From: Candidatus Poribacteria bacterium | GTDB lineage: Bacteria; Poribacteria; WGA-4E; WGA-3G | Assembly (NCBI GenBank): GCA_965200205.1 | Contig: CBDAUI010000002.1 | Span: 599,218 to 663,217 of the forward strand | Direction of reading: 5' to 3' | DNA: 64,000 nt | Shown here: positions 3,308 through 62,838 of the stretch, in pieces | Numbering within the stretch: the first letter of the stretch is position 1 | Layout: each line of letters begins with the position of its first letter | Notes under the pieces: generated by a model | Databases searched by the model: none | What the model saw: the letters and a program-made list of their open reading frames with translations, nothing else | What the model was told of the DNA's origin: nothing | Translations under genes and position numbers: made by a program

Positions 3308-3453
3308 GTTTTTAGCCGTCAGCCATCAGTTTTCAGTTGGCTGATAACTGACAATGACAACCATTGAAACTGATGGCTGGTTGCTGATCGCTGACGGCTG
3401 CCAACTAAATTCTATGGACAATTCAACAAGCGTTGTGGTATACTATATACACT

Positions 3454-5259
3454 ATGTCAACGAATCTTGAAAACATACGGAATTTCTGTATTTTAGGACA
3501 CATCGACCACGGGAAAAGCACACTCAGTGACCGGTTTATTGAGCATACGAACACGCTCGCCGAGCGCGAGATGCGGGCACAGGTGCTTGACCTGATGGAC
3601 CTGGAGCGTGAACGCGGTATCACTATTAAAGCGACCGCTGTTAAACTCCACTATCCTGCTACCGACGGAAACCGTTACGAGCTTAACTTGATTGATACGC
3701 CGGGACACGTCGATTTTACCTACGAGGTCTCACGTAGCCTTGCGGCGTGCGAAGGCGCGATTTTAATTGTTGATGCCGCCCAAGGCGTTGAAGCACAAAC
3801 TTTGGCAAACGCCTATCTTGCCATCGACAACGACCTCGAAATTATCCCGGTCGTCAATAAAATAGATTTACCGACGGCGCGCCCTGATGAAGCCAGACGA
3901 CAGATAGAAGAGGTTATCGGCATCCCCGCAGACGACGCACTCCTCGTGAGTGCGAAAATGGGGATCGGTATCCCTGCTATATTGGAAGCAGTCGTCAATC
4001 GTATCCCCGCACCTACCGGTGAAACAGAAGCACCGTTGAAAGCACTTGTGCTCGATTCTGTGTACGATAACTATCGCGGTGTCATCATGTACACCCGAAT
4101 TTTCGATGGCAGCGTCAAACCGGGTGATAAGATCCAGCTCATGAAGACGAGACGTGCTTATGAGGTTGAAGAGGTCGGTATCTTCACACCAGAGATGCAC
4201 CCAGCGACGGGTTTGGACACCGGTGCAGTCGGTTATCTCATCGCAGGCATCCGGGATATAGACAATGCGAAAATTGGCGATACAATCACGCACCATAAGA
4301 AACCGACGGCTGCGCCGCTGCCCGGCTATCGTGAAATGAAACCGCTTGTGTTCAGCGGTCTGTATCCGGCAGATACGAACCAATTTCCGGCGTTGCGAGA
4401 GGCACTCGAGAAACTGCGTCTCAACGATTCCTCCTTCAATTTTGAACCCGAAACTTCTGTCGCACTCGGCTTCGGTTTTCGGTGCGGTTTTCTCGGATTG
4501 CTCCACATGGAGATCATCCATGAACGTCTTGAACGTGAATTTGGACTTGAACTCGTCCGGACAGCACCGAGTGTGATGTACCGTGTCTATTTAAAAACCG
4601 GTGAGTACATATCTGTTGATAACCCTGCACACCTCCCAGAGCCGAATAATATTGAACATATTGAGGAGCCGTATGTCAATATTGACATTATCGTGCCGCG
4701 CGAGTACATCGGCAATGCGATGGAACTTTGTCAGAAGCGGCGGGGTGTATATAAACGGATGAACCAATTGGACGCAAGTCGTGTACAATTGCTCTATGAA
4801 CTTCCGCTCAGCGAAATGTTGACTGATTTTTACCCGAAACTGAAGTCCTTGACGCGTGGATACGGATCATTGGAATACGACATTGGCGCGTATAAACCTG
4901 AAAAGTTAGTGAAACTTGATGTGCTGCTTAACGGCAATCCGGTGGACGCGCTCTCTACGATTTTACCACGCGACACAGCGGAAACACGTGGAAAGGCGTT
5001 GGTGACGAAATTAAAAGAGGTAATACCGCGTCAGATGTTTGAGGTACCGGTTCAAGCGGCGATTGGTAACAAAATTGTCGCACGTGAAACTGTACGCGCC
5101 CTCCGAAAAAATGTTACAGCGAAATGCTACGGGGGTGATGTATCGCGAAAACGGAAATTGTTAGAGAAGCAGAAAGAGGGTAAAAAGCGGCTCAAGCAGA
5201 TCGGTAGGGTTGACGTACCGCAAGAAGCGTTCACAGCGATGCTCGCAACTGATGAATAA
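3454..5259 (+). CDS. lepA: Elongation factor 4 (LepA)
   Basis: [21 protein letters not shown]-domain and ~600 aa length; conserved lepA-lepB synteny. Confidence 0.95.
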
Positions 5260-5286: not shown

Positions 5287-6072
5287 ATGTGCCCGCAAAT
5301 GAACAAAACAATACTATCTAAACAGGAAAAAATAAAAAAATGGTTGCGAGAGCAGGCACTGCCTTTTGTCGTTTTATTGATTCTCATGTTCGGTTTTGTC
5401 CGTCCTTTTGTTGTTGAGGCGTATAGAATCCCTTCTGGCTCGATGGAGGATACACTGCTTGTTGGTGACCATATTTTCGTGTGTAAGTTTATCTATGGCG
5501 TTAAAATCCCCGGCACAGAGATAAAAATCTTTGATGTCCATCAACCTGCGCGCGGCGATGTCTTCGTCTTTATTCCATCACATGACGAGCGACATTTTAT
5601 CAAGCGTATGATAGCCATTGAAGGCGATACCGTTGAGACGCGTGGTGATACGCTTTATGTAAACGGTGAACCAGTTGATGATAGCCACTACACGAAATAT
5701 ATGAAATTTAGCCACTTTAAAAGAGATTTTCCGCCATTCCGAAGTCCAGAATATATACCGGCAGGTGAGAATTTCGACGATTATACTTTAACCGCAAGTC
5801 AATTCCGACGTGAGTTTCCCGATGGTAAGTCGTTTGTTGTGCCGAAAGGGATGGTTTTTGCGATGGGTGATAATCGCGATCTGAGCAGCGATAGTCGAGC
5901 TTGGGGACCGGTATCCGTAGATGACATCAAGGGACAGGCTTTCATGATTTGGTGGTCGGTTGCGGATCGTCCCGTAAAGTTCTGGGAGGTTTGGAAATTG
6001 GTGAGCAATATACGGTTTAATCGAATCGGCAAGCTGATCCGTTCTGAACCGGAATCGTTCAAAGCAAACTAA
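5287..6072 (+). CDS. lepB: Signal peptidase I
   Basis: S26 motifs IPSGSMEDTLLVGDHIFV (Ser box) and GDNRDLSSDSRAWGPV (Lys/Asp box); N-terminal TM helix. Confidence 0.9.
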   Translation: MCPQMNKTILSKQEKIKKWLREQALPFVVLLILMFGFVRPFVVEAYRIPSGSMEDTLLVGDHIFVCKFIYGVKIPGTEIKIFDVHQPARGDVFVFIPSHDERHFIKRMIAIEGDTVETRGDTLYVNGEPVDDSHYTKYMKFSHFKRDFPPFRSPEYIPAGENFDDYTLTASQFRREFPDGKSFVVPKGMVFAMGDNRDLSSDSRAWGPVSVDDIKGQAFMIWWSVADRPVKFWEVWKLVSNIRFNRIGKLIRSEPESFKAN

Positions 6073-6118: not shown

Positions 6119-6886
6119 ATGAGTGATAACGACATCCAATTATCTAAATGGCAAAAATTTCGGAAAACCGTTACATGGGAATATACACAAGTAATCGTTG
6201 TGGCACTCATTCTCGTTTTCGGGTTCATACGTCCTTTCGTCGTTGAGGCGTTCAAGATTCCCTCCGGTTCAATGGAAGACACGCTCCTTATCGGGGATAG
6301 AATTCTGGTCTGTAAATTTATCTACGGCATTAAAATCCCGGGCACAGACATCAAGGTTCTCGATTTCCATAAGCCTGCCCGTGGCGACGTTTTCGTTTTC
6401 CTGCCACCGCATGACCGAGAACGAAACTTCATCAAACGCATCGTAGCGGTCGAAGGGGATACGATTGAAACACGCGGCAATACACTCTACGTGAACGGTG
6501 AAGCCGTTGATGATGGACACTATGCAAAATATGTTGCTTTCAGCCACTTTAAGAAAGATTTTCCGCCGTTCCGTCAACCCGAGTATCTGCCGGATACTGA
6601 GGAATTCTCCGATTATACCTTAACCTCGAGTCAGTTTAGACGCAAGTTTCCTGACGGCAAGTCGTTTACAGTCCCGAAAGGTAAGGTTTTCGCGATGGGA
6701 GACAACCGCGACCAGAGTAGCGATAGCCGCTCCTGGGGACCCGTAGATGTCAGCGACATTAAGGGGCAAGCGTTTATGGTGTATTGGTCATCTAATATGC
6801 GTCCGATAAAGATATGGGAAGTCTGGAAACTGGTTGGGAATGTCCGGTTCAATCGGATTGGTAAACTCATTCACGCGCATCGTTAA
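6119..6886 (+). CDS. lepB: Signal peptidase I, tandem paralog
   Basis: Same S26 motifs (IPSGSMEDTLLIGDRILV; GDNRDQSSDSRSWGPV); ~75% aa identity to the upstream copy by eye. Confidence 0.9.
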   Translation: MSDNDIQLSKWQKFRKTVTWEYTQVIVVALILVFGFIRPFVVEAFKIPSGSMEDTLLIGDRILVCKFIYGIKIPGTDIKVLDFHKPARGDVFVFLPPHDRERNFIKRIVAVEGDTIETRGNTLYVNGEAVDDGHYAKYVAFSHFKKDFPPFRQPEYLPDTEEFSDYTLTSSQFRRKFPDGKSFTVPKGKVFAMGDNRDQSSDSRSWGPVDVSDIKGQAFMVYWSSNMRPIKIWEVWKLVGNVRFNRIGKLIHAHR

Positions 6887-6921: not shown

Positions 6922-8862
6922 ATGCATCAAGATCAACGCCACGTTATCATCGGAACCGCAGGACATGTTGACCACGGGAAAACAGCACTCGTTGGCGCGC
7001 TCACCGGTATGGAGACAGACCGACTCAAGGAAGAACGCGAGCGCGGCATGTCTATTGAGTTGGGTTTCGCTTATTTCGATTTACCGGATAACTCACGTGC
7101 CGGTATCGTTGATGTACCCGGACACGAAAAATTCATCCGCAGTATGCTCTCCGGTGCCTACGGTATGGATATTGTTCTCTTTGTTGTCGATGCGAAGGAA
7201 GGCGTACAGGAACAGACGCTCGAACATTTGGCAATTCTGGACCTGCTCGGAATCTCGAACGGTATCCTCGTCATGACAAAATCTGACTTGGCAACCGCTG
7301 ATGAATTGGCTGAAGCCGCTGAAATGACACAAGAGATGCTCGTCGGTACAAGCCTCGAAGATATACCGACTGTCAGTGTTTCTGCAATAACCGGTGCTGG
7401 CATTGAAACGTTGAAGCAGACAATTGTTGAGCAGGTGACACTCGCAACGAAATCGGAAGAGAATGACGGTATTCCGAGATTATATGTTGATCGCGTGTTT
7501 ACTGTTCAAGGCTTCGGCGTTGTTGTAACGGGGACACTTATCGGTGGCTCCATTAATCGAGAGCAGCGGATGGTACTGCTACCGCAAGGTGATGTCGTTC
7601 GGGTTCGCGGGATACAGGTACACAATGAACCTGCGTCGGTCGCTTACGCGGGTCAGAGGACAGCCTTAAACCTCTCAGGGATGTCTGCTCAGGACATCCA
7701 GCGCGGCGATGTCCTCTGTCCTATCGACTATTCACAAGTGACCGACAACATAGACGTGTCTTTACAAGTGTTGTCTTCGTTTCCGCGAATCATTGAGCAT
7801 TGGAGCCGTTTCCGCGCGTATCTCGGTACCCGTGAGATATTTTGTCGGTTAATCCTGCTGGTGGATGAGGCGATTCTCCCCGGAGATAAAGTACAGGTAC
7901 AACTCCGTTTAGAACAACCGATTTTGACGTTTAGGGGCGACCGAATTATCATACGCGATTTCTCGGCACAACATACAGTCGGTGGCGGCGAGGTGATCAA
8001 TCCGTTTGCGCCGAAGCATAAACGATTCACGCCAGAGACCATTGCGACTTTAGCAGCGTGGGAAGAAGCCGATGACGCGCAGATCGTCAATATCGTACTG
8101 GCGAATAGCGAAACTCTCTGCGTTCCGGAATCGTTTCTCTATTACTATCTGCCGCACTCGCAAACGGATGTGAAAGCCATTTTAGACATGCTCAAGGCAG
8201 AAGGGAAAATTGTCCGTTGGGTGGAATCTGGGAGGCAACCCATCGTCTCGGATGCAGAACGGACGGAAACAGTTAAGGCACAAATGGTAGACGCGCTTAG
8301 CGCGTTTCACGAGGCGCAGCCGCTCCTTGCAGGGCAAAATGCCTCACAACTTCGCCGAAAACTAAGCCTCGATGAACAGAGTTTTGAAAGACTCGCGAAC
8401 CGACTCATTAAGGAGCACCAACTCGTTAAAGATGGGAATTTACTCCGGTTAGCCTCTCACGAAATCCAGTTCTCTCAAGAAGAGGAGACTGCGAAAGAGA
8501 AATTAGAACAACTGTTTTTGGAAGCCGGTATGAATACGCCGACGCTAAATGAACTCAGCACACTGCTGCCAGAATATACACCGAAAGTTCTTGAGTCTAC
8601 ATTTTACGCGCTTTTAAACTTGGGACGGTTTCTTAAAATAGCAGAAAACTTTTTCATCCATAAAACAAGATTTGAGGAAATCAGCGACACATTAACGACA
8701 TATCTACGTGAAAATGGGACGATAACTGTTGCGGAGTTCCGAGAAACCGCCGGGACTTCGCGGAAGTATGCCGTACCTTTTTTAGAGTACTGCGATACGC
8801 AGAATCTTACGGTGCGCGATGGGAACATCCGAAGGTTACATCCACGGCATTTGGAAACATGA
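6922..8862 (+). CDS. selB: Selenocysteine-specific elongation factor SelB
   Basis: [13 protein letters not shown]...DVPGHEKF G-domain with a SelB-type long C-terminal winged-helix extension (646 aa); tRNA-Sec lies immediately downstream. Confidence 0.9.
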
Positions 8863-8883
8863 TTTGGGAGTTTAAAAAATTAT

Positions 8884-8977
8884 GGGGGAGGATAGGGTCC
8901 GGTGGCCCTACCGGTCTTCAAAACCGGATAGTCCATACACGTGGATTGGTGGGTTCGACTCCCACCCTCTCCCGCCA
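8884..8977 (+). tRNA. selC: tRNA-Sec (selenocysteine tRNA, anticodon UCA)
   Basis: 94 nt. 8-bp acceptor stem GGGGGAGG/CCTCTCCC (one G-U). Anticodon stem CCGGT/ACCGG with loop CTTCAAA, anticodon TCA at 8918-8920. Long variable arm. 5-bp T-stem GTGGG/CCCAC with TTCGACT loop. Discriminator G plus encoded CCA. The 8/5 acceptor/T geometry is the bacterial tRNA-Sec form. Confidence 0.85.
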
Positions 8978-9093
8978 TCGGCTGAGAAATAGCCCATTTT
9001 TGAAAGGTTCGTGCCTTACCGAGATCTTCCTGACAGTTCCCGTTAGGGCGAAATTAAAAAATGCTGAAAACGCTCCCCATAGTTGATACCCCC

Positions 9094-9975
9094 ATGATTC
9101 GCACAAAAGCAGCGCAAAACCGACATCCGGCATGGATAAAGGCGCGAATTCCCGGCGGCGGTAGTTACGCTGAACTGAAGAAACTCATGCGGGATCTACA
9201 ACTTCATACCGTCTGTGAAGAGGCGCGATGCCCGAATATAGGCGAATGTTGGAACAGTCGCACCGCAACCTTCATGATATTGGGAGATGTTTGCACGCGG
9301 CGATGTATGTTTTGCGCTGTGAAAAAAGGGAATCCTGATGGAAATGTTGATACCGATGAACCGCGACGGCTCGGGGAAGCGGTCGGTTATCTAAAACTGA
9401 ACCATGTTGTGATTACGTCCGTCAACCGTGATGATCTTAGCGATGGGGGCGCGAGTGTTTTCGCTGAATGTATCGCCGAAGCGCGGAAACATCGCCCCGG
9501 ATGCACTGTAGAGGTTCTTATCCCAGACCTTGAAGGGAATTGGGATGCACTCGGCGTTATCGTGAAAGCCAGACCCGAAGTGCTGAACCACAATACTGAG
9601 ACCGTACCACGTCTCTATCGTCGTGTCCGTCCGTATGCAAATTACCAGCAGACGCTAACGCTCCTACGAATCAGTAAGCGGCTTGATACCGAGATGCTCA
9701 CAAAATCCGGGCTCATGGTCGGTTTAGGCGAAACTGTGACTGAGCTCTTGGAGACAATGCAAGACATTCGTCGTACCGATTGCGATATTCTTACGATAGG
9801 GCAATATCTCTCACCATCTCCACGGCACCTGCCGATCCAACGCTACTATACGCCTGAAGAGTTTAATGAACTCAAGGAAGCCGGTATGGAAATGGGGTTC
9901 CGACATGTAGAGTCGGGACCGCTCGTTCGGAGTTCTTACCACGCAGGCGAGCAAGCGCGAATAGGGCAGTGCTAA
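9094..9975 (+). CDS. lipA: Lipoyl synthase
   Basis: CEEARCPNIGECW auxiliary Fe-S cluster motif and radical-SAM CTRRCMFC motif; start may instead be 9061. Confidence 0.9.
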   Translation: MIRTKAAQNRHPAWIKARIPGGGSYAELKKLMRDLQLHTVCEEARCPNIGECWNSRTATFMILGDVCTRRCMFCAVKKGNPDGNVDTDEPRRLGEAVGYLKLNHVVITSVNRDDLSDGGASVFAECIAEARKHRPGCTVEVLIPDLEGNWDALGVIVKARPEVLNHNTETVPRLYRRVRPYANYQQTLTLLRISKRLDTEMLTKSGLMVGLGETVTELLETMQDIRRTDCDILTIGQYLSPSPRHLPIQRYYTPEEFNELKEAGMEMGFRHVESGPLVRSSYHAGEQARIGQC

Positions 9976-10329: not shown

Positions 10330-11136
10330 ATGATCCGTGTAATTATTAATGGGGCATGTGGTCGTATGGGACGGCTCATCATTCAAGGTGTGACGCAACA
10401 GACGGACATGGAAATTGTTGGCGCGATTGAATACCCCGAACACCCACAAATCGGTAGTGATGCCGGTGTCGTCGCAGGTATTGGCGAGATTGGTATCGCT
10501 ATTACAGGCGCGCTTGAAGATGTACTTGAAGATGCAGATGTCATCATCGAGTTTTCAAAGCCCGAAGTAACCGTGCAGCACCTCAGACAGGTTGTTGATA
10601 CTGACAAAGCGATGATCATCGCAACAACTGGATTCAACGCTGACGAACTCACGACAGTTAAGCAACTTGCCTCTCAAATTCGCTGTGTGATGGCACCGAA
10701 CATGAGCCTCGGTGTTAACGTGATGATTCAGGCACTTGAGCTCATTGCTAAAGCCCTCGGGGATGACTACGATATTGAGGTTATAGAGGCACATCACAAT
10801 CACAAAGCAGATTCACCGAGTGGAACCGCACTCCGTCTGGCAGAGACCGTCGCTGCGGCATTAGAACGCGACTTAGATGAGGTCGGGGTTTACGGGCGCC
10901 ACGGTATTGTCGGTGCGAGACCGAAGAAACAGATCGGTATCCATGCCGTGCGCGGTGGCGATATTGCAGGCGATCATACGGTACTGTTTGCAACCGAAGG
11001 TGAACAATTAAGTGTTGTCCACCGTGCCCACAGTCCTGAAGCTTTTGCCAAGGGGGCGATCCGTGCAGCGAGATGGGTTATTGATGCCCCTAAAGGACTG
11101 CACGATGTCAGCGAAGTCCTTTTTCAGAAGTCGTAG
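10330..11136 (+). CDS. dapB: 4-hydroxy-tetrahydrodipicolinate reductase
   Basis: N-terminal GACGRMG Rossmann motif and EAHHNHKADSPSGTA catalytic motif. Confidence 0.9.
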   Translation: MIRVIINGACGRMGRLIIQGVTQQTDMEIVGAIEYPEHPQIGSDAGVVAGIGEIGIAITGALEDVLEDADVIIEFSKPEVTVQHLRQVVDTDKAMIIATTGFNADELTTVKQLASQIRCVMAPNMSLGVNVMIQALELIAKALGDDYDIEVIEAHHNHKADSPSGTALRLAETVAAALERDLDEVGVYGRHGIVGARPKKQIGIHAVRGGDIAGDHTVLFATEGEQLSVVHRAHSPEAFAKGAIRAARWVIDAPKGLHDVSEVLFQKS

Positions 11137-11166
11137 GAACTAACTATAGGTTCAAAGGAATCTCTG

Positions 11167-11976
11167 ATGATCCGTGTTGTTATTATTGGTATTTGTGGTC
11201 GTATGGGACAGTGTCTCACGCGCTGCATTACTCAACAAACCGATATGCGGCTCGTTGGTGCTATCCAATATCCATCGCATCCACGCATAGGCAGTGATGC
11301 CGGTGTCGTCGCAGGTATTGGTGACATCGGTGTAGCTATCGCAGGTGAACTTGGGGATGTGCTTGAAAACGCGGATGTCGTTATTGAGTTTTCAAAACCT
11401 AAAGCGACACTCGGATACCTCCGACAGATTGTCAATACAGATAAAGCTATCGTTATTGGCACAACTGGATTTACCGGCGATGAACTCGCAACTGTCAAAG
11501 AACTCGCCGCACAGACTCGCTGCGTGATGGCACCGAATATGAGTCTCGGTGTCAATGTGATGATTCAGGCACTCGATTTAATTGCCAAAGCCCTTGGAGA
11601 TGATTATAATATTGAAGTCATAGAAGCGCATCATAATCATAAAGCAGATTCACCAAGTGGGACAGCATTCCGATTAACAGAGACACTCACCACAGCACTC
11701 GAACGAGATTTAGACGAGGTAGGCATTTACGGTAGACACGGTATTGTCGGTGCGAGACCGAAGAAACAGATCGGCATTCATGCCGTGCGCGGTGGTGATA
11801 TTGCCGGTGATCATACGGTACTGTTTGCGGCAGAAGGTGAACAATTAAGTGTCGTCCACCGCGCGCACAGTCCCGAAGCATTCGCGAAAGGTGCGATTCG
11901 TGCCGCGAGATGGGTCGTTGATGCCCCTAAAGGATTACACGATGTCAGCGAAGTCCTTTTCCCAGAGCAGCCCTAA
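11167..11976 (+). CDS. dapB: 4-hydroxy-tetrahydrodipicolinate reductase, tandem paralog
   Basis: Same motifs; ~80% identical to the upstream copy by eye. Confidence 0.9.
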   Translation: MIRVVIIGICGRMGQCLTRCITQQTDMRLVGAIQYPSHPRIGSDAGVVAGIGDIGVAIAGELGDVLENADVVIEFSKPKATLGYLRQIVNTDKAIVIGTTGFTGDELATVKELAAQTRCVMAPNMSLGVNVMIQALDLIAKALGDDYNIEVIEAHHNHKADSPSGTAFRLTETLTTALERDLDEVGIYGRHGIVGARPKKQIGIHAVRGGDIAGDHTVLFAAEGEQLSVVHRAHSPEAFAKGAIRAARWVVDAPKGLHDVSEVLFPEQP

Positions 11977-13984
11977 TTATCTGGTGCGGGGCAGCCTTAT
12001 AGCAATTGTTGTGTCTGTCACATTCTTATTTATTACAGTCGGTTGCGAGGAAACAACGTCTAAAAAACAGACACGTTACGAGTGGAAGACTGTCATGAAA
12101 GGCGATTGGAGTTCTCACCTTTATGATGTACATTTCATCTCTGAGACACACGGTTGGGCAGTCGGTAATTCGGTTGAGGTGACACCAGGACTGGATTCTG
12201 CAGAAGGCGGAGAGAGTCTCGTCATCCACACAAAAGATGGCGGTAACACTTGGCACCGACAGAACAGCGGCGTTTTCGGTAAACCGCTGCGAAAAGTCTA
12301 TTTCCGATCAGCATTGGAAGGTTGGTCTATCGGTGAGGAAGGCGTACTCATTCACACTTCCGATGGCGGAAAAACGTGGGGGTCGATTGAAACGTCTACA
12401 AGGAATAACCTCAACGCCCTTTTTATCCGGGATGAAATAGGTTGGGTCGTCGGAGATTGGGGGACACTGCTTAAAACAACCGATGGTGGACAGACATTTA
12501 TCGAGATTGATGACGACATATTTGGTCGTAAGTCTCTGAAAAGTATATATTTTGTAAATGAAACCCACGGATGGATCGTTACCTATAACACACCGACATC
12601 AACAGCACACGAAAACGCTGGTTATATCTATCAAACGACCGATGGCGGTATTACATGGACGGAACAATTCACCACAGAAGCCGCACTCTTCAGCATTCAT
12701 TTCATTGACAATCAGACAGGCTGGGTTGTAGGAGATAAGCGAAATGTCTTTGCAACATCTGATGCGGGTGAGACATGGCAATTCATCACAGACGGAAGCA
12801 ACCAACGCCATAAAACCAGTTACGGACAACCGGAATATCTCGGCAATGAGCCGTTGCACACCTTTACACTCTATGATATTGAGTTTACGGATGACCAGAA
12901 CGGCTGGATTGTTGGCGATTTGGGGGTGATTCTCCATACGTCGTCCGGCGGGAAAGGAAAATGGAAACATCAACGCGGCGGACCGCGCTTTCACAACAGT
13001 GCGGATGCCGTCCTGCTCGGTGTTGATTTTGTCTCTAAACGGCTCGGTTGGGTCGTTGGTGAAAACGGCACGATTCTACACACCCGTAACGGCGGCGTGA
13101 CATGGGAGTCACAATCGAGTCCGAGTCATCTGTTGGTAGGTGTCTGTGCTGTTTCGCCGGAAGAGGGGTACGTCGTCGGGGATCGCGGTGCTATCCTACG
13201 AACTAAAGATGGCGGGACCCAGTGGCAGGCACAGGACAGTCGGACGACGGAGTGTTTCGGTGCCACACACTTTATATCGAAAGAAAAAGGGTGGGCAGTC
13301 GCTGAAGCCGGTGTCGTTTTGCACACCCTAAATGCTGGTGCTGTGTGGGAACGTCAGAACTCAAGAACGCAGCAAGACCTGCTCGGTCTTTTCTTTGTCG
13401 ATGAGAAAACAGGATGGTGTGTCGGAACCGGCGGTGAGATCATCCACACAAGGGACGGCGGAAAGACATGGCAACAGCAGAAAAGCGGAACAACTTGGCA
13501 TCTCTTTGATGTCCATTTTACCTCGAAGAGGGAAGGTTGGGCAGTCGGTCTCTTCGGAACGGTACTACAGACAATGGATGGTGGCGAAACATGGAAATCG
13601 TCGAAACTGAGTCGGCAACTCTTGAAGTCGGAGGCCAGTAGCGACCTCTGGCTTGACGCTGTCTACTTTGTTTCACCAAACCTCGGATGGATTGTCGGTA
13701 TTGATGGACAGATATATCACACAGATGATCGTGGAAACAGTTGGACCCGTCAAGAGAGTTATACACAAAATTTTCTTGACGACGTATTTTTTGTCTCTGA
13801 AATGGAAGGTTGGATCGTCGGAAAAGGCGGGTTAGTCCTGCATACGAAAGATGGTGGGCAAAATTGGAGACGTCAATGGACAGATACCCAAACGGATCTG
13901 AAAGCGATCTACGTGAGTCGTGCAGATAGTGGATGGATCGTTGGTCAAAATGGAACGATTCTCAAATATGAGGCTGTTCCGTAA
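11942..13984 (+). CDS. BNR/Asp-box (Ycf48-like) beta-propeller repeat lipoprotein
   Basis: ~14 repeats of the GW.VG...T.DGG.TW motif (e.g. IHTKDGGNTWHRQ, IHTSDGGKTWGSI). N-terminal lipoprotein signal LFITVGC. Start ambiguous: ATG 11942 overlaps the dapB end; GTG 11985 is the alternative. Confidence 0.7.
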   Translation: MSAKSFSQSSPNYLVRGSLIAIVVSVTFLFITVGCEETTSKKQTRYEWKTVMKGDWSSHLYDVHFISETHGWAVGNSVEVTPGLDSAEGGESLVIHTKDGGNTWHRQNSGVFGKPLRKVYFRSALEGWSIGEEGVLIHTSDGGKTWGSIETSTRNNLNALFIRDEIGWVVGDWGTLLKTTDGGQTFIEIDDDIFGRKSLKSIYFVNETHGWIVTYNTPTSTAHENAGYIYQTTDGGITWTEQFTTEAALFSIHFIDNQTGWVVGDKRNVFATSDAGETWQFITDGSNQRHKTSYGQPEYLGNEPLHTFTLYDIEFTDDQNGWIVGDLGVILHTSSGGKGKWKHQRGGPRFHNSADAVLLGVDFVSKRLGWVVGENGTILHTRNGGVTWESQSSPSHLLVGVCAVSPEEGYVVGDRGAILRTKDGGTQWQAQDSRTTECFGATHFISKEKGWAVAEAGVVLHTLNAGAVWERQNSRTQQDLLGLFFVDEKTGWCVGTGGEIIHTRDGGKTWQQQKSGTTWHLFDVHFTSKREGWAVGLFGTVLQTMDGGETWKSSKLSRQLLKSEASSDLWLDAVYFVSPNLGWIVGIDGQIYHTDDRGNSWTRQESYTQNFLDDVFFVSEMEGWIVGKGGLVLHTKDGGQNWRRQWTDTQTDLKAIYVSRADSGWIVGQNGTILKYEAVP

Positions 13985-13996
13985 ACATCCTATACC

Positions 13997-14755
13997 ATGA
14001 GGAAAAGGGAAATGACAGACGAACAAAAATACCTATTTGACTTACAAGGTTTCATCGTGTTAGAGGGAGTTATCCCGCAGTCAGTGATTGCTGCGTGTAG
14101 TGCTGTGTTAGATCAATATGAGAATATGCCGCCTGAAGATTATCCGCCTCCACTGTGCCTCGGTACACAGCGAACGGAGAAGGAACTCTATATCTCCAAT
14201 ATTCTGGAGGCAGACAGGGTCTTTAACGCGCTTATTGACATTCCAGAGGTACTGGACGTAATTCAAGGCGTAACCGGCGGTCCCTACCGGCTCAATCACA
14301 CCTATACGATTTATAGGTGGGGCGGCGGCTATACCGGACTGCACATGCATGGAACACCCATTATCCCGAAATGCCAATACCACTGCAAAAACGGAGAGAT
14401 GGTTTCAACCTTAACGAAGGCAGTTTTTCCGATGCTGGATTGCGACGTGGAAGATGGTTGTTTCGCTGCTATACCGGGGGCACACAAAAGTAATTTTCCC
14501 AAACCTTGGGGAAACCACCCTGATGAGAACCCTGTGTTAAGCCCGATTCCAGCGAAAGCAGGGGATGCCATTATCTTTACGGAGGCACTCACACACGGGT
14601 CTGTCATCAATGTTTCTGGCAAACCGCGTCGGACGCTTTATTACTGTTACAGTATCGGTTATATGCCGGATTGGGGTGGTCAAGGTTTGCATTTCAGCCC
14701 GAACGTCATGGCAAGCCTCACTGAAGTTCAGCAGTCAATCCTTCATCTTAAATAG
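13997..14755 (+). CDS. Phytanoyl-CoA dioxygenase (PhyH) family Fe(II)/2OG oxygenase
   Basis: N-terminal YLFDLQGFIVLEGVI and overall PhyH-like layout; assigned from motifs only. Confidence 0.6.
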   Translation: MRKREMTDEQKYLFDLQGFIVLEGVIPQSVIAACSAVLDQYENMPPEDYPPPLCLGTQRTEKELYISNILEADRVFNALIDIPEVLDVIQGVTGGPYRLNHTYTIYRWGGGYTGLHMHGTPIIPKCQYHCKNGEMVSTLTKAVFPMLDCDVEDGCFAAIPGAHKSNFPKPWGNHPDENPVLSPIPAKAGDAIIFTEALTHGSVINVSGKPRRTLYYCYSIGYMPDWGGQGLHFSPNVMASLTEVQQSILHLK

Positions 14756-30367: not shown

Positions 30368-30661
30368 ATGTCATATTCTGATGCTACCTCTGAAACCATC
30401 GCCGCCCGCGGCGAAGAAATCTATCAGCAGTACCGCGAAGAACTCGAAGCTCAACACAAAGGTCAGTTTTTTGTAGTTGACATTGAAACGGAAAACTATG
30501 AAATCGCCGATGAGGATTTGGAAGCGACAAAACGTCTGCTTGCTAAGAATCCCAAGGCTATGACTTACGGGGTGCGAATCGGATACCCGGCCACCCACGG
30601 TATCGGCTTCAGCTTCGTAGAATGGAATGTGGAATACTATAATGATAACAGGGAAAATTAG
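30368..30661 (+). CDS. Small conserved hypothetical protein (copy A of a duplicated pair)
   Basis: 97 aa; ~65% identical to the 31022-31288 product (shared SETIAARGEEIYQ...FVVDIETENYEIADEDLEAT); preceded by a TGnTATAAT extended -10 at 30298-30306. Confidence 0.6.
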   Translation: MSYSDATSETIAARGEEIYQQYREELEAQHKGQFFVVDIETENYEIADEDLEATKRLLAKNPKAMTYGVRIGYPATHGIGFSFVEWNVEYYNDNREN

Positions 30662-31010
30662 AGACGAACGTGTAGCTATCATTGAAGTGGAAGTGATCGG
30701 CTTAAATCAACGCGCGAAAATTGAGGCAACTCTTGATACCGGATTTACGGGCTATCTGACACTACCAGAGTTTTTAGTTGACTACTTAAGGCTTCCATAG
30801 ATTGGTACTCGGCACACAATTATTGCTCATGGAAGAGCAGTAATCCTTGACCTGTATCTTGCCAAAGTGATTTGGCACGGCAAAGAACGCGATATAGAAG
30901 TTCTGCAAACAGACAAGCAACCGTTAATCGGTATGTCGTTGCTTCGCGGAAGTCGTGTAACACTTGATGTTGTGCCAGATGGCGACGTAACGATTGCTCC
31001 GCTGCGATAG
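30642..31010 (+). pseudogene. Retropepsin-like (clan AA) aspartic protease gene with an in-frame TAG at 30798-30800
   Basis: MITGKIRDERVAIIEVEVIGLNQRAKIEATLDTGFTGYLTLP carries the catalytic D-T-G. The same frame continues after the TAG with ...VILDLYLAKVIWHGKERDIEVLQTDKQPLIGMSLLRGSRVTLDV, a retropepsin C-terminal-like segment. The ATG overlaps the 3' end of the upstream small gene. Confidence 0.55.
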
Positions 31011-31021
31011 GGAGAATCACT

Positions 31022-31288
31022 ATGCTATATTCTGATGAGACCTCCGAAGCCATCGCTGCCCGCGGTGAAGAAATCTATCAGTCCTTGAAGGATGAGCTTG
31101 AATCTCAATACAAAGGCAAAATTTTTGTAGTTGACATTGAAACAGGGAACTATGAAATTGATGATGAGGATTTAGAAGCTACAGCCTGTCTCTTTGCGAA
31201 GAATCCCGACGCTGTTACTTATGGTTTACGCATTGGCTTCGTACCTATCTATAAACTCGGTTTTAGATCTTACGGTTGGAAACCTTAA
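31022..31288 (+). CDS. Small conserved hypothetical protein (copy B)
   Basis: 88 aa paralog of the 30368-30661 product. Confidence 0.6.
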   Translation: MLYSDETSEAIAARGEEIYQSLKDELESQYKGKIFVVDIETGNYEIDDEDLEATACLFAKNPDAVTYGLRIGFVPIYKLGFRSYGWKP

Positions 31289-33195: not shown

Positions 33196-34029
33196 ATGGC
33201 TGTTACAAATTTCACCGAACAAGTTGGGGCAAACACGTCCGAAGCTCTTAAGGTTTCAAAGTGGCTGCTAAAAGTTACAAAAGCAGTCGATAAGTTTCTG
33301 GGAGATATGCGGGGTTCCAGAGAAGCCGTAACCGAAATTGCCCATGCGCGGTTGCTGGCGGTAGCAATTATCTTATCAGATTTTTGTTTGAATGATAAGA
33401 CAAAGCTTCTTAATGAATGGGAGAAAACAACGTTCAGGATTTTCGGACTCCTTGATAAGGATGCTCGCACAGGGGTTGGAAATTATGTGAGATTGGCTCG
33501 CGATATCTGGAAGAATCCTGAGTTAAGTGCCGATGACATTTTAGATAAGATACAGGAAATTGGAACGTTGTATCACATTGACGATTTACTCAATCAACCG
33601 GAAGGCACGAATTGGTACGAAGGTTGGGAGACAGAACTTCGATATTTGTTGTTCCGTTACGAGGAGCATCTGGCTAAACAGCTGGGACAAAAGTTTGATA
33701 ACGAGCAGTGGCGGCGTATGTGGGAAGATTCACCTTCACGCTCTGTTGAACACATTTTTCCACAGTCGAAAGGTAGCCAGGAGCCCTTAAGAGATAGTCA
33801 AGAAGGTATTTACGTTCATAGACTTGGAAACCTTTTGCTCTTACCACCAGGCCTCAATTCAAAGCTGGGGAATAAGGATCCGGAAGATAAGGCACCTTGC
33901 TATAGGCAGACCGGACTTTTCAGTGCTGCCGATGTCGCGCGAACGATTGATGAGTATGGTTGGGGAGCAGATCAGATTAAAGAACGAGAGCAGCGGATGA
34001 TAACATGGATTCGCGAGAAATGGGGATAG
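33196..34029 (+). CDS. DUF1524 (GmrSD C-terminal, His-Me finger/HNH-like nuclease) domain protein
   Basis: SVEHIFPQSKG...VHRLGNLLLLPPGLNSKLGNK matches the DUF1524 signature; no DUF262 N-terminal domain present. Confidence 0.6.
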   Translation: MAVTNFTEQVGANTSEALKVSKWLLKVTKAVDKFLGDMRGSREAVTEIAHARLLAVAIILSDFCLNDKTKLLNEWEKTTFRIFGLLDKDARTGVGNYVRLARDIWKNPELSADDILDKIQEIGTLYHIDDLLNQPEGTNWYEGWETELRYLLFRYEEHLAKQLGQKFDNEQWRRMWEDSPSRSVEHIFPQSKGSQEPLRDSQEGIYVHRLGNLLLLPPGLNSKLGNKDPEDKAPCYRQTGLFSAADVARTIDEYGWGADQIKEREQRMITWIREKWG

Positions 34030-36119: not shown

Positions 36120-37268
36120 TCAACTGAGGTTAATAATCTCTCCAGTTGCTGCAGAGCGATACCCCGCGCAGATGATTTCGACGGAATGCACAGCAAATTC
36201 GGCGTTCATCTCGCTCTCTATGCCGTTCTCAATACAATCCACAAACGCACTGAACTCTCGTGGCCCATCGTCTCCGCTGCCGACATCTATCCACTGCTGT
36301 TTCGGGCGCATACCGCTCTCCGCTTGTGTACTACTCCACATCCCCATCGGATCGAGCGGATGCGGGGTCGGCGGTTCAAACGCCGGTTCAGCAGCAAACA
36401 CTTCCAGACGGTTCGCTGAAGCATCAAACGTCAAGCTCCCTTCGGTGCCGATGAGGTGTACCTTCCGAACACCGCCTTGTGCGTGACTCTGCCAACCGTA
36501 GCGTCCGCTGGTAATTGTCGCTGTCGTACCATCTTCTAACGTCAGCACCAATGCACCGAAATCTTCGAGATCACAGTCGAGATGCTCTTTGAAGAAATAG
36601 TTCGCTGTTCCACCAAACACGCGCTGCACCCGTTTCTGTGTCAGCCAATTCACCATAGACACCGCATAGACCCCGACATCGAACATCTCAGGCTTCGCTT
36701 CAACGAAACTATAGCGCTCCAGTGTAGGTTTTTGGATTCTTTTCTCTCCAACGGGTGCGGTGCCGGGATGTCCCTTGGAGAAAAGCACATCGCAATGGAT
36801 CGCTTGAAGTTCACCGATACGTCCACTGGTCAATGCGCGCTGAACCGTGCGTGCCCACGTACTATGGATATTACTGAACATCTGGGTTCGCACGCCGCTT
36901 TTTGAGACCGCTTCAACAATCCTGTTCGCATCGTCAGGGTTGAGTGCCATCGGTTTATCGAGATAGACGTGTTTTCCCGCTTCCGCACATTTTGCACCGA
37001 CACGTCCACGACGTTCCACCTCCGTGCAGAGGCTGACGATATGAACATCCTCACGTGCCAAAGCGTCGTCGAGATCACGGATGAAAGGTAGATTTAACGA
37101 TTCTGCGAGCGAACGTGCCAGTGCCACCCGTTCTGGTGGTGCATCGAGTTCATCGGCAAACGCGATCAATCGGCAGCGTTCGTCTTGTTCAAAAAGCGAG
37201 GCGTAATTCTCCTGATGTGTGCGGTATCCGCCGAGCAGAAGCACACCGTATTTTCCGTTTTGCCGCAT
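36120..37268 (-). CDS. Gfo/Idh/MocA family NAD(P)-dependent oxidoreductase
   Basis: N-terminal Rossmann fold (YGVLLLGGYRTHQENY...) and family-typical C-terminal domain. Confidence 0.85.
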   Translation of the reverse strand: MRQNGKYGVLLLGGYRTHQENYASLFEQDERCRLIAFADELDAPPERVALARSLAESLNLPFIRDLDDALAREDVHIVSLCTEVERRGRVGAKCAEAGKHVYLDKPMALNPDDANRIVEAVSKSGVRTQMFSNIHSTWARTVQRALTSGRIGELQAIHCDVLFSKGHPGTAPVGEKRIQKPTLERYSFVEAKPEMFDVGVYAVSMVNWLTQKRVQRVFGGTANYFFKEHLDCDLEDFGALVLTLEDGTTATITSGRYGWQSHAQGGVRKVHLIGTEGSLTFDASANRLEVFAAEPAFEPPTPHPLDPMGMWSSTQAESGMRPKQQWIDVGSGDDGPREFSAFVDCIENGIESEMNAEFAVHSVEIICAGYRSAATGEIINLS

Positions 37269-37908: not shown

Positions 37909-38274
37909 ATGCCATTGAAAACCCTTGAACAACTGCTTAGCGAAGCGAGAGCGAACGTTGGACAGATAGCTCCTGATGAACTCACAGAGGCTACAGAGAC
38001 AATTATCCTCTTGGATGTTCGGGATGAACCGGACTACGACGAAGAACATCTACCGAATGCCGTTTCACTACCGCGCGGCTACATTGAACTTGATATCGAC
38101 GAGGTTGCACCTGATGCGGACACACACATCGTTACCTATTGCGGTGGCGGTACCCGTGCGACACTTTCCGCTCACACCCTGAAAAATATGGGTTATGAAA
38201 ACGTTTCGGTCCTAACCGGCGGTTTCCGAGGGTGGAAAGCCGAAGGATTACCCACCGAAAAATCTGACGCATAA
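37909..38274 (+). CDS. Single-domain rhodanese-like sulfurtransferase
   Basis: Active-site loop YCGGGTRA with the catalytic Cys; 121 aa. Confidence 0.85.
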   Translation: MPLKTLEQLLSEARANVGQIAPDELTEATETIILLDVRDEPDYDEEHLPNAVSLPRGYIELDIDEVAPDADTHIVTYCGGGTRATLSAHTLKNMGYENVSVLTGGFRGWKAEGLPTEKSDA

Positions 38275-58802: not shown

Positions 58803-59756
58803 TTATTTTTTTAGCACTTCCTCACGATGCCATGCCAATGCTTCTTGAGCTGGATAAAGTTCACTGTGATCAGGCAATAATATCGACTTACCTCGCAAGG
58901 TAGTCAGCAGCCATTCTGTGGGTCCACGCTCCAACATAAAATCCGAAACAATCACTTTATAAGTTCTATCCACGGAAATTAAGCCGCTATCAAAAGACCA
59001 GTGATGTAGTCGGCAAAGAGAAATTCCATTCCTGACATCATTATTATGTGACTTATTAAACGGGATGATGTGGGCAGCCTCAGTTGCACTTGCTCCATCC
59101 AATGTCAGAACGTGTAATTGACAAACCACGCAGGTGTAATCGTAAATCCTCATGATTGCTTTACGAAACCCTTGAGTACGAACTTCATTTTCTCTTTCAT
59201 CTGATACTGCTGGATGTTCGGATGTAAATACGTAATCAACTTGTTGAATCAGCTGCTGGCTGTAACTGTTAACCTGTTGTTCTTCAGTTATGAGATTTTC
59301 AATCTCCTGCTTAAAATCCGAGAAATAGGTATCAATAAGTGTTGCGCGGAGGACTTCTCGGTCAGAGGCATTCGTGAATAAAACGAAGAGATCGTCATCA
59401 AAACCAGCGTGCGCGATAACTTCTCGGAGACGAGAAACTGTTTTAATTTGGGTGATAACGCTTAGTGCTGTTTCATATCCTGCGTTTGCATGAAGATGCC
59501 AAAATCCCTCGCTCTTTAAGTGGAAAAATGGTAAGGCAAGATTAGGTCTGCGGTCAGTCACTATTGACCAATATTTCATAAAAATCTCAAACAGATCCGG
59601 AGAAGGTGAGATTTTATTCTCGCGAATTTGTCCTTGCTCAATCAGTTCAATGATTGCTAACAAGAGAGCAGGCTTATTAGGCGCTGCCCCACGCGCCCTG
59701 TCTATTCGCAGGCGTTTCATCTTTTCGACATATTTTTGAAGGATATTGTTGGACAT
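58803..59756 (-). CDS. HNH_2-type endonuclease with uncharacterized N-terminal domain
   Basis: C-terminal HNH motif CVVCQL...AAHIIPF...NGISLCRLHHWSFD. Confidence 0.65.
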   Translation of the reverse strand: MSNNILQKYVEKMKRLRIDRARGAAPNKPALLLAIIELIEQGQIRENKISPSPDLFEIFMKYWSIVTDRRPNLALPFFHLKSEGFWHLHANAGYETALSVITQIKTVSRLREVIAHAGFDDDLFVLFTNASDREVLRATLIDTYFSDFKQEIENLITEEQQVNSYSQQLIQQVDYVFTSEHPAVSDERENEVRTQGFRKAIMRIYDYTCVVCQLHVLTLDGASATEAAHIIPFNKSHNNDVRNGISLCRLHHWSFDSGLISVDRTYKVIVSDFMLERGPTEWLLTTLRGKSILLPDHSELYPAQEALAWHREEVLKK

Positions 59757-61006: not shown

Positions 61007-61810
61007 GTGAAACGTTGCGTCATCTTATATTTCATGATAGGCTTGAGTATTAGCCTCATCGCATGTCGCAGTGATGAGGCATCAGAAGATTCTGCGCGTG
61101 AACAGACACCACTGGCGGCACTCGACACTCCGATTGACGTTGAAGATATGGTCTTGATTCCTGCAGGAGAGGTTAGACTTGGTACGGATAGCAAGACCGA
61201 TTTAACGTTCGGGACGGAAGCCGACACGCGGACGGTTTTTGTCGCGGCGTTCTATATCGATAAATATGAGGTTACAAATAAGCAGTACGCAAAATTCCTC
61301 GTGGAAACCGGGCATCGAAAGCCGAAGTTCTGGGCGGATCTGAGGTTCAACGCGCCAGATCAGCCGGTTGTTGGTGTCAATTGGGAAGACGCTGAAACCT
61401 ACGCAACATGGGCTGGTAAAAGACTACCTACAGCAAGCGAATGGGAGAAGGCAGCGCGCGGTACGGACGGTAGACACTACCCGTGGGGAAATGATTACGA
61501 TGCGGCACGTGGCAATTTCGACGATGGCGGCAGCATGGACGGCAGCACCGACGGCTACGCGATGACCGCAGCACCGGTCGGACATTTTATAGACGGTCTG
61601 AGTCCTTACGGACTACACGATATGGCAGGAAATGTTTGGGAATGGGTAGCAGAACACTCGGAAACGACGGATAAAAAAATATACGCAATCCGAGGCGGAT
61701 CGTGGACGAATGGGGCAGGAGATACACGCACCACAGTCGCTTATATCTACCCAGCACAATGCAGCGACCACAGCAGTTCCGTTGGATTCCGCTGTGCAAA
61801 GAACCCTTAA
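61007..61810 (+). CDS. FGE-sulfatase (SUMF1/formylglycine-generating enzyme) family lipoprotein
   Basis: Lipobox LIACRSD; FGE-domain motifs (VTNKQYAKFL...PVVGVNWEDAETYATWAGKRLPT.SEWEKAARG...GNVWEW...RGGSW...RCA). Confidence 0.8.
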   Translation: MKRCVILYFMIGLSISLIACRSDEASEDSAREQTPLAALDTPIDVEDMVLIPAGEVRLGTDSKTDLTFGTEADTRTVFVAAFYIDKYEVTNKQYAKFLVETGHRKPKFWADLRFNAPDQPVVGVNWEDAETYATWAGKRLPTASEWEKAARGTDGRHYPWGNDYDAARGNFDDGGSMDGSTDGYAMTAAPVGHFIDGLSPYGLHDMAGNVWEWVAEHSETTDKKIYAIRGGSWTNGAGDTRTTVAYIYPAQCSDHSSSVGFRCAKNP

Positions 61811-61888
61811 TGCAACTATGTCAAACATACCATAGTAAAACAAAAAAATAATGCAACACTTTAGCAAACAACATATCCCCTCAATGCA

Positions 61889-61915
61889 GGCGGGGTTTGG
61901 AACCCCGCCTTTTAT
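61889..61915 (+). terminator. Putative intrinsic terminator: hairpin GGCGGGGTTTGGAACCCCGCC followed by TTTTAT
   Basis: Perfect 9-bp GC-rich stem and T-run, 80 nt after the FGE gene stop; same hairpin family as 43197-43217. Confidence 0.5.
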
Positions 61916-61967
61916 AGATGTCTCGTTAATTGTAGGTTTTACTATAAAATACATCATCTGTTACGTA

Positions 61968-62834
61968 ATGCTATTAACGGTGAGCCTACTCGGTTGTGGC
62001 AGCGACGAACAGATGCTGGTCGAAGAAGAAGAAGAAAATATTCAAATCGACGAAGTGCCGGTCGTAGAAGTTGCCCCCGAACCGACACCGGTAGTGGTGC
62101 AAGTCCCGGAAGGCATGGTATACGTCCCTGCGGGTGCGTTCATTATGGGCAGTGATCCTGATGTCGATCCGATGACGGATGCGCTCGATGAACTTCCGCA
62201 GCATAAGGTATTCTTAGATGCCTATTTTATTGATAAATATGAAGTCTCCAACGCCGATTACACCAAATTTGTTGAAGCCACGGGACACCGAAACTCAATC
62301 TTTTGGGACAATCCAAAGTTTAATCATCCGGATCAACCGGTCGTAGGTGTGACGTGGGGTGATGCCACCGCTTATGCCGAATGGGTCGGAAAACGTCTGC
62401 CGACTGAAGCGGAGTGGGAAAAGGCGGCGCGTGGCACCGATGGACGTATCTGGCCCTGGGGAAACGAATTTGATCCGACGAAATGTAACTTCGATGATGA
62501 AGGAAAGTTCGATGGACACCTTGACGGCTTCGCTATGGCGGCACCTGTGAAGAGTTTCGAGCAAGGCGAGAGTCCTTACGGTGCGCTCAACATGGTGGGA
62601 AATGTCGCAGAGTGGGTCGCCGATTGGTTCGATGCCGAGTACTACTTCGTCAGTCCTGCGGAGAACCCGAAAGGACCGCCGACGAGCGGCATGGGAAAAA
62701 AATCGTGGCGCGGTGCGAGTTGGTTCGCCGGTTCCGAACAGATGCGGTGCGCGTTTCGCGAGTACGACGACATCGTGGCGAGTGGACAGATACTCGGATT
62801 CCGATGCGCGATGGATGCACCGGAGATGGAGTAA
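61968..62834 (+). CDS. FGE-sulfatase family lipoprotein, tandem paralog
   Basis: Lipobox LLGCGSD; same FGE motifs as the upstream copy. Start set at the internal ATG 61968, after the terminator hairpin. Confidence 0.8.
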   Translation: MLLTVSLLGCGSDEQMLVEEEEENIQIDEVPVVEVAPEPTPVVVQVPEGMVYVPAGAFIMGSDPDVDPMTDALDELPQHKVFLDAYFIDKYEVSNADYTKFVEATGHRNSIFWDNPKFNHPDQPVVGVTWGDATAYAEWVGKRLPTEAEWEKAARGTDGRIWPWGNEFDPTKCNFDDEGKFDGHLDGFAMAAPVKSFEQGESPYGALNMVGNVAEWVADWFDAEYYFVSPAENPKGPPTSGMGKKSWRGASWFAGSEQMRCAFREYDDIVASGQILGFRCAMDAPEME

Positions 62835-62838
62835 AACC

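Follow-up and report, generated by a model that had tools for sequence, protein, structure and literature searches.

A conserved selB–tRNA-Sec gene pair of probable function in selenocysteine decoding in Candidatus Poribacteria

When a gene for a selenocysteine-specific elongation factor, selB, appears to be followed directly by a tRNA gene with a UCA anticodon, do the two make up a working apparatus for reading UGA as selenocysteine (Sec), or are they the remains of one, or something else altogether? This question is raised by a stretch of 64,000 nucleotides from Candidatus Poribacteria, a group of sponge symbionts. The stretch is referred to here as the 64-kb window, and all positions are counted from its first letter. 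An open reading frame (ORF) of 646 amino acids occupies positions 6922-8862 of the plus strand, and a 94-nt tRNA gene lies behind it at 8884-8977 on the same strand. The pair is interpreted here as the canonical bacterial Sec-decoding pair, selB and tRNA-Sec (selC), and it is very probably functional in this genome. Both genes are identifiable, intact and adjacent, and both are conserved across the phylum under purifying selection.

The protein was identified by family models, domain content and solved relatives, with Pfam and NCBIfam annotation applied to every window ORF of at least 150 amino acids and to several ORFs in intergenic gaps. The 646-residue ORF, which ends in a TGA stop at 8860-8862, matches the selB equivalog model TIGR00475 at 365 bits against a cutoff of 242.25 and covers profile positions 1-579 of 581. 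The best EF-Tu model gives 129 bits where its cutoff is 449, the IF-2 model gives 59.8 bits where the cutoff is 424, and the models for EF-Tu, EF-1alpha, IF-2 and LepA all fall far below their own cutoffs. Pfam recognises GTP_EFTU, GTP_EFTU_D2 and Beta-barrel_SelB (PF00009, PF03144 and PF25461), which make up the EF-Tu-like domains I-III, followed by SelB-wing_2 and SelB-wing_3. The GTPase domain spans residues 6-171 (6937-7434, plus strand; PF00009, 124.5 bits), with TKSD among its motifs. The first winged helix, SelB-wing_2, spans residues 457-510 (8290-8451, plus strand; PF09106, 38.7 bits against a cutoff of 22.3), while the C-terminal winged helix, SelB-wing_3, spans residues 594-639 (8701-8838, plus strand; PF09107, 67.5 bits, above its cutoff). 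By homology with characterised SelB, this last domain would be the one that binds the selenocysteine insertion sequence (SECIS) hairpin.

Comparison with solved structures points the same way. The best solved relative is Escherichia coli SelB (5LZB; E = 3.6e-72), whose residues 2-605 align to residues 9-639 of the window protein, and EF-Tu chains trail the SelB structures by about 35 orders of magnitude. In the alignment to E. coli and Aquifex aeolicus SelB, the G1, G3 and G4 motifs, including TKSD, are intact, the D-R pair of the aminoacyl pocket is present, and the RKxAxxxLEYxD...GN helix at the C-terminus matches the corresponding ends of both proteins. The TIGR00475 match, the presence of both SelB winged helices and the distance to EF-Tu therefore refute a grouping of the protein with IF2 or EF-Tu. 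The original prediction had read the ORF as SelB, and the 365 bits of TIGR00475 and the 5LZB match bear it out; on its sequence, the product of 6922-8862 is SelB.

The tRNA gene was found by ARAGORN, run on the whole window, and by a scan with all 4227 Rfam families at their gathering thresholds. ARAGORN calls a tRNA-SeC with anticodon tca at 8884-8977 (plus strand) as the sole tRNA of the window, and the only Rfam match in the 64 kb is RF01852, tRNA-Sec, which spans 8884-8973 and all 91 model positions (1-91) with 76.4 bits, where the gathering score is 47 (E = 6.4e-14). The unconstrained minimum free energy (MFE) fold of the 94 nucleotides is a cloverleaf of -46.7 kcal/mol (z = -2.95), a stability equalled by 1 of 200 shuffled sequences. 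This fold has an acceptor stem of 8 bp and a T-stem of 5 bp, the bacterial 8/5 arrangement with 13 bp in all, as against the 7/5 of canonical tRNAs. The variable arm is 20 nt long, with 8 bp and a 4-nt loop, and the UCA anticodon (TCA at 8918-8920, confirmed by a position check) sits in a 7-nt loop, CUUCAAA. The D-stem has 7 bp in the MFE fold and was scored for the pair count below as the canonical 6 bp with the 4-nt loop CGGU (columns 11-16 with 21-26). Both G73 and CCA are encoded in the genome (...CTCTCCC-G-CCA at 8966-8977), G73 being the discriminator base that serves as an identity element for seryl-tRNA synthetase (SerRS). When the window tRNA was used as a blastn query against annotated E. 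coli genomes, no match was returned, the query being too short and too divergent. The 94-nt gene with its UCA anticodon, 8-bp acceptor, 5-bp T-stem and long variable arm, beginning 21 nt past selB, had been described in these terms from the letters alone. ARAGORN, RF01852 and the MFE fold agree with that description, and neither program scores the locus as a pseudo-tRNA or as another isotype, the Sec call being well over threshold. The gene at 8884-8977 is accordingly assigned, from covariance model and fold, as tRNA-Sec.

A UCA anticodon would also be expected of other UGA-reading tRNAs, such as opal suppressors, allo-tRNA-like molecules or, in a code with reassigned UGA, the tRNA for that codon, and the scarcity of TGA stops in the window, found in 2 of 40-42 genes, could be read in the same sense. 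Such an identity is extremely improbable, however, for a molecule that combines 13-bp 8/5 helices, a long D-stem with a 4-nt loop, a long variable arm and G73, that exceeds the threshold of the tRNA-Sec covariance model by 29 bits, and whose gene is linked to selB in 49 genomes. Reassignment in particular is opposed by selB orthologues of equal length that stop at TAA, TAG or TGA, and by window genes that align over their full length to Pfam and NCBIfam families without any read-through of TGA. Because selB orthologues end in the three codons alike and the family alignments are full-length under translation table 11, TGA remains a stop codon here.

Does the pair persist in related genomes as functional genes would? 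When each GTDB species was represented by one genome, a scan found SelB at 77-96% identity encoded at 51 loci, L001-L051, all of them titled Candidatus or uncultured Poribacteria; one further weak match, from an actinomycete, is irrelevant. ARAGORN places a tRNA-SeC directly 3' of selB at 49 of the 51 loci. The two exceptions are L043, whose contig ends within selB, and L028, whose tRNA gene is split. In the 49 genomes that can be compared, selB is uninterrupted and encodes 644-651 amino acids. The ratio of nonsynonymous to synonymous substitution (dN/dS; Nei-Gojobori, window selB against 39 orthologues) has a median of 0.046 and a range of 0.028-0.073; synonymous sites are saturated in most comparisons, and close comparisons with unsaturated dS of 0.35-0.63 give 0.05-0.07.

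The tRNA is conserved too. Over these loci it takes only 15 sequence forms, among which 11 are full-length and distinct; the mean column identity is 97%. On the 8/5 structure, all 352 of 352 pair cells (100%) of the 11 distinct poribacterial variants are standard, including all 13 acceptor and T-stem pairs, while structures slid by 1-3 columns give merely 46-61% standard pairs. Six stem pairs vary, and all of them stay paired: five change on one side (G-C to G-U, U-G to U-A), and one, 47:64 in the variable arm, is compensatory (A-U to U-A and the reverse), the window carrying the minority version. The covariation signal is thin because the tRNA sequences are so alike, and conservation is the main signal. 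Across the phylum, selB is under purifying selection and tRNA-Sec is under strong constraint.

The rest of the pathway was sought in the window and in the literature. Neither selA, selD nor a recognised selenoprotein family occurs among the window ORFs of at least 150 amino acids or the scanned gap ORFs; the ORFs annotated include TPR, WD40, GFO/IDH/MocA, formylglycine-generating enzyme (FGE)-sulfatase, SpoIIE-phosphatase and ABC/FtsX proteins. Frames split by TGA were collected by a strict scan allowing one TGA, which gave 20 candidates, and by a permissive one, run over the gaps between genes with TGA treated as sense, which gave 10. These candidates proved to be antisense or overlap noise, normal TGA stops, or a di-haem peroxidase gene; in the last case, at 62353-64002, the gene is an ordinary one that has a Met start and a lipoprotein signal peptide of its own. 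Strict and permissive scans thus yielded no credible gene with an in-frame UGA and a SECIS element anywhere in the window, in line with the original prediction, which had found no selA, selD or in-frame-TGA candidate there.

A single-domain rhodanese of 121 amino acids is encoded at 37909-38274, with the Cys active site YCGGGTRA. The rhodanese family has Sec-containing members in other bacteria; the window protein is the Cys form.

Related genomes supply what the window lacks. SelA and SelB have been reported as enriched in sponge symbionts (Slaby et al. 2017, PMC5649159), and Table S4 of that work lists, for WGA-3G, bin44 and bin70 respectively, 2, 4 and 2 copies of COG1921 (SelA), 1, 1 and 1 of COG3276 (SelB), and 1, 2 and 1 of COG0709 (SelD). 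Ca. Poribacteria WGA-3G is locus L001 of the present sample, and its SelB is 95% identical to that of the window. Furthermore, a 2026 survey names nine phyla that have Sec-containing group 4 [NiFeSe] hydrogenases, and Poribacteria is one of them (PMC13582414).

The absence of selA, selD and any credible selenoprotein gene from the window weighs against the reading of the pair as functional, as does the chance that the COG1921 counts of 2-4 include SelA-like paralogues. On the narrower matter of co-transcription, the same may be said of a terminator-like hairpin behind the tRNA that is weak and missing from 46 of 46 relatives, and of a selB–tRNA gap that reaches 414 nt in some relatives and leaves room for a promoter of the tRNA's own.

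The first of these absences, together with the rarity of TGA in the window even as a stop, would suit a lineage that no longer makes selenoproteins and retains selB and tRNA-Sec as leftovers that are themselves being lost. Such a relic is nevertheless very unlikely. Its selB would not be expected to be intact in 49 genomes at a dN/dS of about 0.05, nor its tRNA to be 97% conserved with every stem substitution preserving pairing where nearby synonymous sites are saturated, and there are records of SelA and SelD in related genomes as well as reports of Sec-containing hydrogenases for the phylum. The use of selenoproteins by the source organism, which the window alone does not show, is strongly supported by indirect evidence, because selB and the tRNA are constrained, SelA and SelD are on record for relatives and Sec-hydrogenases are reported from the phylum.

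How the functional pair would work can be proposed by homology with characterised systems. The tRNA-Sec is presumably charged with serine by SerRS, after which SelA would convert the Ser-tRNA into Sec-tRNA-Sec with selenophosphate from SelD, the selA and selD genes lying beyond the window. SelB would bind GTP and Sec-tRNA-Sec through its EF-Tu-like domains I-III, and its C-terminal winged helices would bind a SECIS hairpin just 3' of an in-frame UGA. In this way, SelB could bring Sec-tRNA-Sec to the ribosome so that the UGA is read as Sec.

How is the tRNA itself transcribed? The selB stop (8860-8862) and the tRNA start (8884) are separated by a 21-nt gap, an A/T-rich spacer or leader at 8863-8883 on the plus strand. 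A scan with a sigma-70-type consensus found no promoter-like match on the plus strand after position 8210, that is, over about 650 nt upstream of the tRNA, including the spacer at 8863-8883. The short spacer and this negative scan suggest that the tRNA may be co-transcribed with selB and then cut from the transcript.

Across the loci, the gap between selB and the tRNA ranges from 13 to 414 nt. The pair may thus be functional with the tRNA independently transcribed from a promoter of its own, its place beside selB reflecting linkage and not an operon. This arrangement is a possible but less favoured one. It would accommodate the gaps of 100-414 nt in about 15 relatives and the conserved A/T-rich leader that precedes the tRNA whatever the gap length, and the consensus scan was limited to sigma-70-type promoters. 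The gap is, however, only 13-21 nt in about 20 genomes, the window among them, a distance that cannot hold a promoter unless it lies within the selB coding sequence; the scan gives no promoter-like match on the plus strand after 8210; and the conserved leader ends at tRNA +1, so it could not act as the -10 element of a transcript that begins upstream of the mature tRNA. Co-transcription with selB is kept here as the preferred, though tentative, account for the window.

In many relatives, the bases directly 5' of the tRNA form an A/T-rich leader of some 21 nt (TTTGATAGTTTAAAAAATTAT-like), even at gaps of 100-400 nt. Since the leader is kept at long gaps, the extra sequence must have been inserted between the selB stop and the leader. 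A context for RNase P or another processing signal may be considered as candidate roles for it.

A terminator closing a selB–tRNA unit was also considered, namely a hairpin at 8980-8994 with a T-run. It was rejected, as it reaches -3.9 kcal/mol only and 0 of 46 relatives have an equivalent; terminator-like matches in the region are no commoner than in shuffled sequence. In several of the 46 relatives, the lipA start lies within about 17-40 nt of the tRNA. Given the weak, unconserved hairpin and a lipA so close behind the tRNA, the array from lepA to lipA may therefore be transcribed as one unit, with the tRNA cut out of the product.

The neighbourhood belongs to a longer co-directional block on the plus strand. 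Upstream of selB, besides the genes of this block, lie genes for a PhnA-like hydrolase and a 3-keto-disaccharide hydrolase-family protein. The block opens with lepA (EF4; 3433-5259; TIGR01393, 981.9 bits) and continues with two tandem copies of lepB, encoding signal peptidase I, at 5287-6072 (TIGR02227, 146.5 bits) and 6119-6886 (TIGR02227, 155.3 bits). The selB–tRNA-Sec pair follows, and lipA, encoding lipoyl synthase, starts 83 nt past the tRNA (9061-9975; NF004019, 422.5 bits; TIGR00510, 377.5 bits). Beyond lipA stand two tandem dapB genes (10330-11976, from the family annotation) and an ORF of 711 amino acids with Ycf48-like or glycosyl-hydrolase-like repeats (11849-13984), listed with a GTG start. 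Through this GTG start, the Ycf48-like ORF overlaps the end of the second dapB by 128 nt, and its true start is probably further downstream.

The original prediction had placed the tRNA in a conserved lepA-lepB-selB-lipA block, and within Poribacteria this holds at 51 of 51 loci, with one or two copies of lepB. The longer order of lepA, lepB (1-2), selB, lipA, dapB (1-2) and the Ycf48-like gene is seen at every locus long enough to show it, copy numbers of lepB and dapB being those scored by tblastn. Both lepB and dapB are tandem duplicates in the window and occur in one or two copies each in the relatives by the same scoring, so the duplications look old but not kept everywhere.

Two further listed ORFs lie over the tRNA, 8859-9086 (plus strand) and 8918-9133 (minus strand), together covering 8859-9133. 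They had been dismissed as artefacts, rightly so: neither has a Pfam family, and their counterparts in 46 related loci range from 22 to 149 amino acids. Because these lengths vary so widely, the two are not conserved reading frames but artefacts.

Integration at tRNA genes, selC among them, is well known, so the tRNA could in principle mark the edge of an integrated mobile element, like selC at enterobacterial pathogenicity islands, and one relative does carry a mobile group II intron in its tRNA-Sec gene. For the window, this has a practically negligible probability. Downstream there is neither an integrase gene nor a directly repeated tRNA 3' end, and no second tRNA 3' end, with up to 3 mismatches, was found in the whole window. 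Moreover, the downstream genes lipA, dapB and Ycf48-like are of housekeeping type and syntenic in all relatives.

The intron-bearing relative is L028 (OZ246979.1, a chromosome of a Poribacteria metagenome-assembled genome, distinct from the window), in which the tRNA-Sec gene at 11959-14386 is split by a group II intron. The insertion is 2334 nt long (12040-14373), begins with GTGCG and follows ...GGTTCGACTCCCA in the 3' strand of the T-stem. It contains an ORF at 12546-14240 encoding 564 amino acids with RVT_N, RVT_1, GIIM and HNH domains, and a match to RF00029, group II domain V/VI (69.9 bits, gathering score 40), ends one base before CCCTCTCCCGCCA. Once the flanks are joined, they give the consensus tRNA-Sec; ARAGORN misses the split gene. 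Of the 51 loci, L028 alone carries the intron, and purifying selection still acts on its selB (omega about 0.125 in comparison with the nearest relatives). In the tRNA genes of bacteria, a 2026 survey counts only six group II introns; neither tRNA-Sec nor any T-stem is among their sites, and a literature search on group II introns in tRNA-Sec found nothing specific. Because the six cases of the survey include neither a T-stem nor a tRNA-Sec, the T-stem insertion in tRNA-Sec looks unreported.

Stop-codon usage is another feature of these loci that touches UGA. The window genes (40-42) end in TAA 22-25 times, in TAG 15-16 times and in TGA twice, the two TGA genes being selB and the gene at 36120-37268. 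Pooled over the 51 loci, 671 long ORFs end in TAA (359), TAG (198; 30%) and TGA (114; 17%). The observed/expected ratio of the trinucleotides is 1.11 for TGA, which is not depleted, and 0.52 for TAG, which is. At 48.5% GC, a TAG commoner than TGA is unusual. Nothing specific was found in the literature on poribacterial stop-codon usage. The bias is only a lead, given the small sample and the orthology of the loci.

The shift of stops away from UGA might have arisen as an adaptation in sponge symbionts that recode UGA as Sec intensively. A broader proposal would join several of these features: a Sec tRNA hard-wired into a housekeeping unit, lepA-lepB-selB-tRNA-Sec-lipA, and processed from its polycistronic mRNA, together with stops that avoid UGA, as an adaptation to UGA-Sec recoding, with splicing-dependent decoding in L028. 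Taken jointly, this is an unlikely proposal and is put forward as speculation.

Other parts of the window gave observations of their own. At 30368-31288, there are two paralogous small ORFs of about 90-97 amino acids, beginning MSYSDATSETIAARGEEIYQ... and MLYSDETSEAIAARGEEIYQ...; the first, the only one scanned, has no Pfam family, and short ORFs with a DTGF motif lie beside this first copy. A GmrSD_C-domain protein and an HNH_2 endonuclease are encoded at 33196-34029 and 58803-59756 and are possible defence-type nucleases; they fit the richness in defence genes reported for sponge symbionts (PMC5649159). At 61007-64000, two adjacent FGE-sulfatase genes (formylglycine-generating-enzyme-like) precede a gene of the di-haem cytochrome c peroxidase/MauG family that encodes a lipoprotein and runs off the right end of the window.

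The pair marks the source as a selenocysteine-capable poribacterium, and the finding fits the enrichment of Sec machinery in sponge symbionts (PMC5649159). Annotators of the source genome should expect in-frame UGA in formate-dehydrogenase, hydrogenase or redox genes, and should discard the two spurious ORFs over the tRNA. Additionally, the L028 intron and the stop usage could interest those who work on mobile introns and on the evolution of stop codons.

Set beside known systems, the window SelB shares with E. coli SelB the EF-Tu-like GTPase, domain 2, the beta-barrel and the C-terminal winged helices (5LZB-5LZD, on the ribosome), and the alignment reaches residue 605 of the 614 of the E. coli protein. 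The tRNA shares with E. coli selC and RF01852 the bacterial 8/5 form, the UCA anticodon and the G73-CCA end. The gene arrangement differs: in E. coli, selB belongs to a selAB operon and selC stands elsewhere on the chromosome, whereas in the window selC is directly behind selB and selA is not nearby. Aquifex aeolicus SelB (4ZU9) aligns over domains I-III (E = 4e-70) and at the C-terminal winged helix, its middle winged-helix region being unaligned in this search. Archaeal SelB (4AC9) likewise aligns over domains I-III (E = 1e-44), but its best stretch covers query residues 2-288 only, and the bacterial C-terminal extension of the window protein has no aligned counterpart in it.

Clusters of selB-selC or selA-selB-selC are found in other Sec-using bacteria, for example in clostridia and Desulfobacterota, and like the window they have tRNA-Sec immediately downstream of selB on one strand. 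The window pair differs in lying amid lepA-lepB and lipA and not beside selA, selD or selenoprotein genes. A further comparison is with poribacterial SelB already in the databases, where NCBI gives proteins 86-98% identical to the window SelB the name [quoted passage not shown], and where many more relatives are found than the 51 loci, including an entry, P0001, listed at 100% identity. From these annotated proteins, nothing material differs, and the same locus recurs in 51 GTDB species representatives; the selB–tRNA-Sec locus is thus one already annotated, a textbook arrangement that is already known.

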